Both the position numbers and the translations under genes were made by a program. The notes below the pieces were generated by a model. That model had not been told where the DNA came from. It saw only the letters and a list, made by a program, of their open reading frames with translations, and did not search any database. A stretch of DNA of 64,000 bases from a virus: the IMG/VR virus record IMGVR_UViG_3300020392_000005. One strand, given 5' to 3'. Within the stretch, counting starts at the first letter, position 1, and the number at the start of each line of letters is the position of its first letter. Below, piece by piece: positions 3,176 to 31,041 of the stretch.

Positions 3176-3385
3176 CTACTTATATTTGTCCGACTTTACT
3201 TTAGAACCATCTGCTCTAGGTATCATACCTTTTGCTTTTAGATGAGCCTTATCTGTAAAGCCTGCCTTACCTGCTTTGTATCGCTTCATAGCGTCAGCAG
3301 TATTAGGCGCTTTCTCATTTACTAAATCTTCTTCAAAGTCTTTCAACTCTTCGTCTTCGTTAAACTTTGTGAACGACTTAACCAT
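3176..3385 (-). CDS. Small hypothetical protein with MVKSFTKFNE leader
   Basis: ORF track; coupled to neighbours. Confidence 0.6.
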   Translation of the reverse strand: MVKSFTKFNEDEELKDFEEDLVNEKAPNTADAMKRYKAGKAGFTDKAHLKAKGMIPRADGSKVKSDKYK

Positions 3386-16406: not shown

Positions 16407-16483
16407 TGGCGACCTTGGCAGGACTTGAACCTGCAACATCTAGTTTAGAAGACTAGTGCTCTATCCAGTTGAGCTACAAGGCC
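16407..16483 (-). tRNA. tRNA-Arg(UCU)
   Basis: Cloverleaf: GGCCTTG acceptor, CTAGT-CTTCTAA-ACTAG anticodon arm, GGTTCAAGTCC T-arm, encoded CCA. Confidence 0.95.
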
Positions 16484-29428: not shown

Positions 29429-29869
29429 TTACTTAATCGCAATATTTCTTGGTTTCTTATGGTCAGGTATAATTCTTTCCATAGATACCTTTAAAAGACC
29501 GTCTTTCAACTCGGCACCTTTGACTTCTACATCATCAGCGATTGTGAAAGATTTAGAAAAATACCTTTTAGCGATACCTTTATGGATTACTTCGCCATCT
29601 TTAGTTTCTTCTTTGTCTTCTTTTTTAGATTTAATTGATAGTACACCTTCTTCTAGGTTTACTTCAATGTCTTTTTTTGAATAACCAGCAAGAGCGATTT
29701 CTATATCGTACTTGTTCTTATCAGTTTTCACAATATTGTAATGTGGAAAACTAGGCATACTTGATAACATATCGCCTTCAAACATTTGTTCAAAATGGTC
29801 AAAGACATTATCAAATCCTACTGATACTGGTCTTAATTGATTGAAAATAGATAGTGCTTTATGTGTCAT
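29429..29869 (-). CDS. Small heat-shock protein Hsp20
   Basis: P.YNI, IEIALAG, HKGIA.R.F...F, A.LKDGLL. Confidence 0.95.
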   Translation of the reverse strand: MTHKALSIFNQLRPVSVGFDNVFDHFEQMFEGDMLSSMPSFPHYNIVKTDKNKYDIEIALAGYSKKDIEVNLEEGVLSIKSKKEDKEETKDGEVIHKGIAKRYFSKSFTIADDVEVKGAELKDGLLKVSMERIIPDHKKPRNIAIK

Positions 29870-29937
29870 TTCTAACCTCCTTTATTAAGCAAAGTTATTT
29901 TCTTTATATTACGACACCCTATTAGGCGTGTCATTAT

Positions 29938-29945
29938 TATTTATA
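29938..29945 (-). promoter_or_regulatory. Late promoter TATAAATA for hsp20
   Basis: Exact consensus followed by a leader hairpin. Confidence 0.75.
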
Positions 29946-29970
29946 TAATCATTATTATATAAAATTCAAG

Positions 29971-30164
29971 TGGCTGTTTCTTTAAAGAGTATACAGCCAA
30001 AACTCTAGCGCTTTAGGTTCTTTTTTTAGATGTTGAACCACAGGGACACCCCAAACAAACATCAGCGACACCGCATTTGATTTTTGAAATCTGGTAGCGG
30101 CAACCTTTTACGCCTCAACTAGGACTTACGAACAGCCTAGCATATTATATATATCGGCGTAAAA
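29971..30164 (-). ncRNA. Putative structured ncRNA with two tandem H-type pseudoknots
   Basis: Multiple perfect helices in a non-coding gap; see findings. Confidence 0.6.
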
Positions 30165-30167
30165 CCC

Positions 30168-30377
30168 TTAATAACCTCTTTGAGCTTTTAATTTCTTCTG
30201 CTTCTTAATCCAAGCTCTAGTCATTTCTTTCTTTTTACGATTTCTTTTATCGCAAGGCTTTTCATAATATTGCCTTTGTCTCAACTCTTTAACAATACCT
30301 GCTTTCTGTACCTTCTTTTTAAGTACTCGCATTGCTTGTTCCAAGTTGTTATTTCTTACAACGACCGTTATACTCAC
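30168..30377 (-). CDS. rpsU: Ribosomal protein bS21
   Basis: V.VRNNN.EQA.R.LKKK...G...E...R.YYEKP; GGAGG RBS, GTG start. Confidence 0.9.
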   Translation of the reverse strand: MSITVVVRNNNLEQAMRVLKKKVQKAGIVKELRQRQYYEKPCDKRNRKKKEMTRAWIKKQKKLKAQRGY

Positions 30378-30390
30378 TTACATTACCTCC

Positions 30391-31041
30391 TTATCCATAG
30401 TAAACTCCTCCGTCAGTACCATTTAAATATGTATCTGGAACCTCGTTAGGTTTGTTATAACTAATTTGTAAATCCCATTTGGCATAAACATCACCACTTG
30501 ATATAACCTCTTCAACACCTTCGTGTGATAAGAAGTATCTCTTAACAATCTCTTCGCCGATGGTACCTTTCTTACCCATAACATTTGTATCGTTCTTTTT
30601 GTTTTTTGAATAAGTTGTATAACCATTATAAGTTCGCCACTTACCATTACCCATATGTCTTAAATGTTCTAGGTCGTCTTTATTCGTTATCTTACCCATT
30701 ACTTTCAACCAATCTTTAGTTGCCTTATGTCCTATAGGTATATTAAACCAGGGGTCATTGTAACCTTTAGGATATACAATCATACGATTTTGAAAGTGTA
30801 AACTTTGTTCTTTAGTTAACCAGTTGTGTAATGCAGGACCACTTGCCCTAACAATCTCACCTTCTCTAGGATGATTTATTGTCTGTGGTAACTTATAATC
30901 ACCACAACCTAGAAAGTAAACATACCTGACACCAAGTAAACTTTCAACTTGACTACCTTTGGCAGGATGTGCTACGATATCAAAACCGTGGTTTCTAGTG
31001 TATCGTAATGTTTGTGTTTTTATACTCACTTTAAATTTCAT
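30391..31041 (-). CDS. Hypothetical protein
   Basis: ORF track; tightly packed. Confidence 0.6.
   Translation of the reverse strand: MKFKVSIKTQTLRYTRNHGFDIVAHPAKGSQVESLLGVRYVYFLGCGDYKLPQTINHPREGEIVRASGPALHNWLTKEQSLHFQNRMIVYPKGYNDPWFNIPIGHKATKDWLKVMGKITNKDDLEHLRHMGNGKWRTYNGYTTYSKNKKNDTNVMGKKGTIGEEIVKRYFLSHEGVEEVISSGDVYAKWDLQISYNKPNEVPDTYLNGTDGGVYYG

Follow-up and report, generated by a model that had tools for sequence, protein, structure and literature searches.

A conserved, sense-strand, pseudoknotted RNA module lies between the genes for ribosomal protein bS21 (rpsU) and an IbpA-like small heat-shock protein (hsp20) in a 64,000-nucleotide (nt) stretch of viral DNA (IMG/VR record IMGVR_UViG_3300020392_000005, hereafter the window). 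It occupies positions 29971 to 30164 of the minus strand, bounded by a promoter-like box on one side and by the next promoter or a ROSE-like leader on the other, and it goes with the hsp20 locus and not with rpsU as such. We see about an even chance that the module is the distal, pseudoknot-rich part of a long structured leader of the hsp20 locus, acting in cis, in marine T4-like phages of heterotrophs. A preliminary description had proposed a functional RNA with two tandem H-type pseudoknots at this place. All of its helices are present and consist of standard pairs in a base-by-base check, compensatory changes keep them in relatives, and the element is conserved across more than 160 phage contigs. 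The features of the stretch, from its 5' end, are as follows.

30106 to 30164, minus strand: module M1, a 9-bp outer stem (TTTTACGCC, 30164-30156, with GGCGTAAAA, 30114-30106; pairs verified) enclosing an AT box and hairpin H1
30144 to 30153, minus strand: AT box TATATATAAT, -10-like, just upstream of H1; candidate promoter P1
30119 to 30140, minus strand: hairpin H1, CTAGG (30140-30136) with CCTAG (30123-30119), and a near-invariant loop, GGC-NN-UYCRUAAG-N-CC
30070 to 30101, minus strand: module M2, an arm of GCCGC (30101-30097) with GCGGT (30074-30070), one pair being G-U, enclosing the hairpin GATTT/AAATC
30065 to 30071, minus strand: conserved linker GUGUCGC; CGCU (30067-30064) pairs with AGCG (30012-30009), closing pseudoknot 1
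30016 to 30063, minus strand: pseudoknot 1, with stem 1 GATGTT (30063-30058)/AACATC (30034-30029), an inner hairpin GGG/CCC, stem 2 GGTTC (30039-30035)/GAACC (30020-30016), and an A7 loop 3 at 30027-30021
29971 to 30006, minus strand: pseudoknot 2, the canonical unit of the RNA family, with stem 1 AGAGT (30006-30002)/ACTCT (29990-29986), stem 2 TGGCTGT (29999-29993)/ACAGCCA (29977-29971), loop 1 UU(U), and an A-rich loop 3

The evidence that this fold is real is comparative. When rpsU-hsp20 spacers of relatives were gathered and tested for covariation, as the preliminary description had suggested, 12 helices were scored in seven sequences: the window and six relatives chosen by blastn similarity alone. 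Cells were paired in 89.8% of cases (a share inflated by taking the structure from one of the seven, which does not affect the double changes), against 38-48% with the 3' partners slid. Both sides had changed in 17 of 54 pairs, against 8.9 ± 1.8 in shuffles, and none of 500 shuffles was as high; the covariation score was 0.272 against 0.04-0.09. RNAalifold, run independently, predicts H1, the M2 arm and its inner hairpin, the CGCU/AGCG closure, and stem 2 of both pseudoknots. Departures from perfect pairing within helices favor G-U (131 pairs) over A-C (55), and therefore the folded strand is the sense strand of rpsU and hsp20.

Individual helices differ in how much they contribute. In the seven-sequence set, stem 1 of pseudoknot 1 has four pairs changed on both sides, and the stems of pseudoknot 2 are 100% paired, again with four doubly changed pairs; CGCU/AGCG is invariant there, and covariation speaks neither for nor against its pairing. 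Stem 2 of pseudoknot 1 reads TGTTC...GAACA in relatives L008 and L009, with the outer pair kept as U-A, a change that is gapped and hence unscored in the alignment. Among 32 sequences, the outer stem is 79% paired with four doubly changed pairs, and the stem of H1 is 97% paired with both sides changed in three of its five pairs. Relatives replace the outer stem by such complements as TTCTATGCC/GGTATAGA, TTTTGCG/CGCAAAA, and TTTCGCTTA/TAAGCGAAA. The helices of M2 show double changes from C-G to U-A and from G-C to A-U; M2 variants include GGGTAG/CTACCC and CCGA/TCGG, and the module is a pseudoknot in some lineages and a plain hairpin in others. Coding offers no competing account: as first described, no started open reading frame (ORF) spans the stretch, and the sole ORF inside it, a 29-codon GTG frame (30071-29982), is not conserved, with an in-frame TAG in relative L003 and indels of 1, 2, and 4 bases among relatives.

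A wider collection of 80 IMG/VR loci, assembled with an Hsp20 probe and having rpsU mostly 220-540 nt upstream of hsp20, reveals a common order in the spacer: M1, M2 with GUGUCGC, the pseudoknots, a promoter of the form TTGACA...TATAAATA, a further hairpin (H3), and a hairpin that hides the SD (Shine-Dalgarno) sequence. M1 in relatives consists of a covarying outer stem around an almost invariant TATATATA(T/A) box, plus H1. The pseudoknots are variations on one design, in which stem 1 is followed by a loop 1 of U3-5, and a stem 2 beginning with G by a short loop 2; an A-rich loop 3 and the return strand come next, with CUU after the return strand. Stem 2 of this canonical unit is 91% paired, with both sides changed in six of seven pairs, in 75 units that were chosen by a scanner requiring pairing; this scanner found one unit or more in 105 of the 119 distinct leaders. 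The covariance model built on the unit finds pseudoknot 2 as its sole match in the 64 kb of the window (E = 0.005), and yields 55 matches in 82 loci (509 kb), all on the hsp20 strand; each match whose position was set against the hsp20 start falls in the leader. The 64-kb window holds no second copy of the H1 loop or of the pseudoknot model. The number of pseudoknots per leader ranges from one to at least four (two in the window, four in L010), and the leader RNA from about 100 to more than 400 nt.

The structured region extends past 29971: a promoter follows, and then two further conserved hairpins that reach up to the hsp20 start codon.

29913 to 29932, minus strand: hairpin H3, GACAC-G-CC / GG-GTGTC, with a conserved bulged G
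29873 to 29897, minus strand: ROSE-like hairpin H4, UAACUUU-G-CUU / AAG-GAGGUUA, sequestering the SD sequence AAGGAGG; bulged G at 29890

Across 82 sequences H3 is 89% paired, with 98 cells in which both sides have changed. In the minimum-free-energy fold of the window, H4 holds the SD sequence by U-G, U-A, and U-G pairs, a bulged G, and a C-G pair. The published signature of ROSE-like thermometers is a U(U/C)GCU segment that pairs imperfectly with the SD sequence and leaves a G bulged out (PMC11342760). In each of the 82 distinct leaders UUGCU or UCGCU stands opposite GGAG, and all 82 fit a template of a C-G pair, a bulged G, a U-G pair, and at least three pairs on GGAG. The extension of the H4 stem covaries as well (mean run of 5.41 pairs against 4.58 ± 0.10 when shuffled, in 82 leaders), and H4 lies directly upstream of an ORF of the HSP20 family, the 5' position that ROSE elements take. 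The Rfam model ROSE_3 (RF02523) scores 14.6 bits, below its cut-off of 43, and the element is therefore called ROSE-like and not a member of that family. By its sequence and fold signature, 29873-29932 is thus a candidate thermometer of ROSE-like type. The stretch at 29971-30164 lies outside this thermometer core, with its pseudoknots and conserved-loop hairpin on the far side of a promoter. Of the initial picture of a free-standing noncoding RNA between rpsU and hsp20, the folded RNA stands; the framing was too narrow, because the proximal part of the leader is the ROSE-like hairpin over the hsp20 SD sequence, and the stretch is better described as the distal part of something longer. A separate observation concerns GUAAG of the H1 loop, which could pair with CUUGC of the anti-SD box; both segments are invariant.

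The distribution of the module is what ties it to hsp20. The pattern of AT box plus H1 recurs in at least 118 further IMG/VR contigs. At least 163 loci carry the H1 pattern; among the matches listed, hsp20 follows on the same strand in 152, of which 122 also have rpsU upstream and 30 are without rpsU. In the 122 with rpsU, the module begins about 20 nt after its stop codon; where rpsU is absent, the upstream gene is cobS in 11 of the 12 loci translated. Such rpsU-less loci are compact. After the cobS stop comes a hairpin with TTGACT in it, then, 17 nt on, TATATA and, about 7 nt further, H1; one pseudoknot, H3, and the SD hairpin lead to the ATG, and H1 is only 105-141 nt from hsp20. No conserved promoter was found between pseudoknot and hsp20 in these compact loci, and therefore the module there is the 5' part of the hsp20 leader and the AT box its -10 element. 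A promoter candidate inside the compact leader of L090 (TTTAAA, 18 nt, TAGAAT; 9 of 12 positions matching) was set aside: it runs into the 5' arm of H3 and lacks conservation.

The module is also found in the cultured phages HTVC008M, Mosig, and Melnitz; a blastn search with one compact leader gave no match among cultured phages. Melnitz, which infects Methylophilales (OM43), has the same leader and no rpsU. In HTVC008M an ORF lies between rpsU and the module, which adjoins hsp20, and an ORF parts rpsU from the module in L032 as well. The cyanophages S-RIM8 and Syn1 have only H3 and the ROSE-like SD hairpin before hsp20, and the leader is therefore modular. Scanning 185,579 prokaryote genomes for the box-plus-H1 pattern gave no evidence of a host origin: of 25 stretches, three are real (L218, L219, and L223), all marine contigs of metagenome-assembled genomes with the same phage-type leader, with hsp20 confirmed in two, and the other 22 are without the stem and without hsp20.

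The AT box, near-invariant as TATATATA in relatives, lies 17 nt after TTGACT in rpsU-less contigs, the spacing of a sigma-70-type promoter; in many relatives TTTACG or TTTACA is found 17 nt upstream of the box and doubles as the 5' arm of the outer stem. The second promoter candidate lies between the module and H3.

29938 to 29969, minus strand: internal promoter P2, TTGAAT (29969-29964), an 18-nt spacer, and TATAAA, overlapping TATAAATA (29945-29938)

P2 is kept in relatives as TTGACA...TATAAATA, the latter being what we take to be the T4 late-promoter consensus.

How the leader might work can be sketched from its minimal form, which in contigs without rpsU comprises a sigma-70-type promoter with TATATATA as its -10 element, H1 at the 5' terminus, one pseudoknot, H3, the ROSE-like hairpin, and hsp20. 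The window lineage departs from this in three respects: rpsU lies directly upstream, and in read-through transcripts the outer stem clasps the box and H1; the module is enlarged by a second arm and two pseudoknots; and a second promoter, with TATAAATA, has been inserted after the last pseudoknot. The module would act in cis on transcripts arriving at the hsp20 locus from upstream, including those presumably begun at P1. With H1 as a 5'-terminal cap hairpin, H1 and the compact pseudoknots could form a nuclease-resistant, self-folding block that protects the message and insulates the switch downstream; in read-through transcripts from rpsU, the same block may shield the rpsU message at its 3' end as well. 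The blocking of nucleases, one of the uses raised in the preliminary description, is thus a possible function. Because the H1 loop is near-invariant and the pseudoknot design is repeated, a protein partner is suggested. The module would then probably be a repeated docking surface for a protein regulator, and the foremost candidate would be the IbpA-like Hsp20 itself, working together with the ROSE-like switch. A further step, speculative and on balance unlikely, would make the chain a multivalent platform read by oligomeric Hsp20 or another conserved factor, coupling the folding or aggregation state of proteins in infected cells to expression of the genes behind it, or else a stable decoy RNA after release. 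On such a platform, the number of pseudoknots would tune the response.

What is known of IbpA gives these ideas a concrete form. Binding of Escherichia coli IbpA to the structured 5' untranslated region (UTR) of its own mRNA depends on Arg93 and an aromatic residue at position 34 (PMC10474464). The Hsp20 of the window is 36% identical to E. coli IbpA (phage Hsp20s in general, 30-42%), and both of these residues are kept in it and in its relatives; of two further basic residues, at positions 97 and 98, it keeps only one. IbpB is without the arginine. Because the RNA-binding residues of IbpA are kept in phage Hsp20s, self-regulation of Hsp20 through the leader RNA is an attractive hypothesis, built by analogy. 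The self-repression of E. coli ibpA (PMC10474464; bioRxiv 10.1101/2020.04.20.050740) likewise joins an IbpA-like downstream protein to a highly structured, ROSE-like leader; unlike the phage leader, the E. coli ibpA UTR is without pseudoknots. ROSE thermometers of ibpA and hspA (PMC11342760, PMC3669281) share with the phage leader a multi-hairpin 5' leader on an IbpA-type gene, upstream hairpins preceding the sensing hairpin, and a last hairpin in which U(U/C)GCU meets the SD sequence, with U-G wobbles and a bulged G in the stem. They differ in that the stretch described here, upstream of the sensing hairpin, contains pseudoknots and a conserved-loop hairpin where the cited descriptions have plain hairpins, in that the carrier is a phage, and in that a promoter splits the leader in the window lineage.

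Several observations weigh against a cis-acting hsp20 leader. The single-sequence fold is only mildly better than its shuffles (z = -1.77), with a better score for the antisense strand, and the case is therefore built on the comparison of relatives; moreover, a crude family-wide test of stem 1, which takes the longest contiguous helix, gave 4.52 bp against 4.39 bp in shuffles, the support for stem 1 being covariation within subfamilies. At P1 of the window the best -35 element is weak (TTAAGG, a 16-nt spacer, then TATAAT), and because part of the outer stem lies upstream of the P1 -10 element, the stem could form only in read-through transcripts from rpsU. P2 gives hsp20 of the window lineage a short leader of its own, and in two studies RNA contigs have ends at 29935 and 29932, the place expected for the start of a late transcript, a weak hint of its use. 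Speaking for the leader, four marine RNA libraries (three studies) yielded contigs that cover the stretch; in three of four runs, however, the distal module had less depth than hsp20, contig depth being a poor measure and such contigs showing presence only, such that uncovered parts and depth differences do not count as evidence. In Mosig, a module of about 400 nt comes right after rpsU, and a TTGACA promoter and a 1-kb gene precede hsp20. In L131 (1303-2315) and L176 (7777-8793), hsp20 has been lost, rpsU, module, and peroxiredoxin gene are kept, and peroxiredoxin follows the module. These layouts indicate that the module is an autonomous unit that normally stands at this position.

Such autonomy is what would be expected of a free-standing, trans-acting small RNA, started from the TATATATA/NATAAATA box, running from H1 to the last pseudoknot, and binding or titrating a protein of host or phage, such as ribosomal protein S1, an RNase, or a toxin. 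The separate promoter that most rpsU-linked lineages have right after the last pseudoknot fits an RNA of this kind, as does a pseudoknot number that varies from one to at least four, as expected of a multivalent decoy. We nonetheless consider it doubtful, given that in compact loci the lack of a conserved intervening promoter obliges the module to be in the hsp20 mRNA, that a terminator-like site was looked for and none found, and that the module is not more abundant than hsp20 in RNA-library contigs.

The same genomic layouts bear on another proposal, that the module is a 3'-UTR element of the rpsU mRNA, either a processing or stabilizing structure or an autoregulatory site for bS21. Among the matches listed, the module follows the rpsU stop by about 20 nt in 122 of the 163 loci; its covarying outer stem is possible only in transcripts from rpsU; and it has stayed with rpsU, not hsp20, in Mosig and L131. 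This account must contend with the 30 loci, and Melnitz, that carry the module without rpsU, and with the ORFs that part the two in HTVC008M and L032; no 16S-like sequence was identified either. To our knowledge, ribosomal-protein operators lie in 5' leaders. The S15 operator of rpsO and the S4 operator of the alpha operon are indeed pseudoknotted mRNA beside a ribosomal-protein gene, but they lie in the 5' leader and overlap the regulated start, whereas the phage RNA is 3' of rpsU and also occurs without it. These grounds speak against a bS21 autoregulatory operator, the element being neither in the rpsU leader nor obligatorily linked to the gene, and the suggestion of a bS21 ligand in the preliminary description fares no better. 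A 3'-UTR element of rpsU in any form seems to us unlikely.

Riboswitches would offer yet another use for H-type pseudoknots with A-rich tails, as single or tandem aptamers that bind a metabolite and control the gene downstream. Size and topology resemble the preQ1-I, SAM-II/V, and guanidine-III aptamers, and the tandem arrangement and the 5'-UTR position in compact loci are in keeping with the idea. It is very improbable all the same: the pseudoknot sequence is free to vary apart from its U and A runs, no expression platform lies beside the pseudoknots (a promoter or H3 intervenes), there is no obvious metabolite logic for hsp20, and Rfam gave no riboswitch match at E up to 10. Covariance models of the known pseudoknot riboswitches (preQ1-I/II/III, SAM-II/V, fluoride, guanidine-III) were likewise without a match at E up to 10, or up to 5 on the long form.

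Least probable of these rivals is mimicry of a type III antitoxin, a pseudo-ToxI that neutralizes a host abortive-infection nuclease: phages escape ToxIN by expanding pseudo-ToxI repeats, and a row of small pseudoknots that differs in copy number from one related phage to another recalls this, but the units covary independently and are not near-identical direct repeats (Tandem Repeats Finder found no tandem repeats in 29850-30200), no ToxN-like or other defense gene is nearby, and the strict linkage to H1 and the hsp20 locus would be left unexplained. The antitoxin mimic raised in the preliminary description is thus not supported, with no tandem repeats, nuclease-like neighbor, or defense-family match in its favor; PADLOC returned no match for the neighboring rpsU, hsp20, peroxiredoxin, DUF3310 protein, or 216-amino-acid (aa) protein.

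Searches for a known identity otherwise came back empty. At gathering score, neither the window nor any of 12 relatives matched a relevant Rfam family; at E up to 10 there was none on 29800-30300 or on the compact form L090, and at E up to 5 none on the long form L056. The covariance-model search thus produced no hit that would remove the novelty claimed at the outset, and the relationship to the cyanophage manA motif (RF01745) put forward there is unsupported, with no match on the window at gathering score or on 29800-30300 at E up to 10, and none in relatives. ToxI RNAs and the manA motif resemble the module as small pseudoknots in phage-related RNA and differ from it in that the module has no identical tandem repeats, no toxin gene, and no manA match in Rfam. 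Serial small H-type pseudoknots of varying number also occur as PK2-PK4 of transfer-messenger RNA (tmRNA) and in the upstream pseudoknot domains of plant-virus 3' UTRs, both unlike the phage array, which has no tRNA-like domain, tag frame, or CCA end. For the same reasons, and with the Rfam tmRNA models silent, tmRNA was rejected as a candidate; ARAGORN found only a tRNA-Arg in the window (16407-16483) and no tmRNA or tRNA at the stretch.

The closest precedent among T4-like phages is the H-type pseudoknot in the 5' leader of gene 32 mRNA, an autogenous translational operator that lies upstream of an A/U-rich tract and the ribosome-binding site and is thought to nucleate protein binding. The phage leader differs in that hsp20 does not encode a single-stranded-DNA-binding protein, in lacking sequence similarity, in having several pseudoknots and a conserved hairpin, and in that no unstructured tract follows the pseudoknot in compact loci. 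An operator of the gene 32 type was set aside: the downstream gene is hsp20, peroxiredoxin, or an unknown gene, never gene 32. The pseudoknot chain is thus without a described counterpart, and no catalogued RNA family fits it. The literature searched on pelagiphage or HTVC008M noncoding RNA and on phage hsp20 thermometers contained nothing relevant, and nowhere in it was a phage hsp20 gene described as carrying a ROSE-like element.

An uncatalogued, pseudoknot-rich, conserved RNA would be a new family of structured phage RNA, and the hosts of the pelagimyophages and their relatives, SAR11 and OM43, are among the most abundant bacteria of the sea. Should the chain prove to be a platform or decoy, it would represent a new class of phage regulatory RNA, abundant in T4-like phages of the ocean. 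Its study bears on the post-transcriptional control of a phage chaperone gene, on the role of serial pseudoknots in bacterial mRNAs, and on the question of an RNA-binding regulatory role for small heat-shock proteins beyond the enterobacteria. The cultured HTVC008M, Mosig, and Melnitz provide a tractable system. There is also an annotation to correct: the small ORFs Mosig_00014 and Mosig_00015 (L002:3204-3452) and Melnitz_221 (L198:711-815) fall inside the leader RNA and are probably not genes.

Two inserts in the leaders of relatives deserve mention. An identical hairpin of about 57 nt (TATAGATATTCACTAGG...CCTAGTGAATTTCTATAAG) lies between the last pseudoknot and the next promoter in L041, L077, and L131; shared by three otherwise different leaders, it resembles a small mobile element. 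An extra conserved module of about 110 nt (CTGGTCCATTGGCC ... GGGTGAGGCCTACCACTACCAG), apparently pseudoknotted and without an Rfam match, is carried by the long leaders L016, L017, L045, L052, L054, L056, L057, and L063, and by L002 at 3290-3370.

The window itself belongs to a T4-like marine phage of SAR11 type, and its hsp20 region is similar to those of the Pelagibacter phages HTVC008M (71%) and Mosig (74%), both Kyanoviridae. The two genes that flank the RNA, 298 nt apart on the minus strand, are these.

30168 to 30377, minus strand: rpsU, phage ribosomal protein bS21, a 69-aa ORF (Pfam Ribosomal_S21, E = 2e-19); upstream neighbor of the RNA
29429 to 29869, minus strand: hsp20, IbpA-like small heat-shock protein (Pfam HSP20, E = 1e-17); downstream gene

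Beyond hsp20 come genes for a peroxiredoxin and a sliding clamp; on the upstream side of rpsU lie a DUF3310 gene, a 216-aa ORF, and a gene for a cobS-like ATPase. One metatranscriptome contig fuses 30390 to 31044, leaving out the 216-aa ORF of unknown family (30391-31041), and therefore represents a close relative without that gene.

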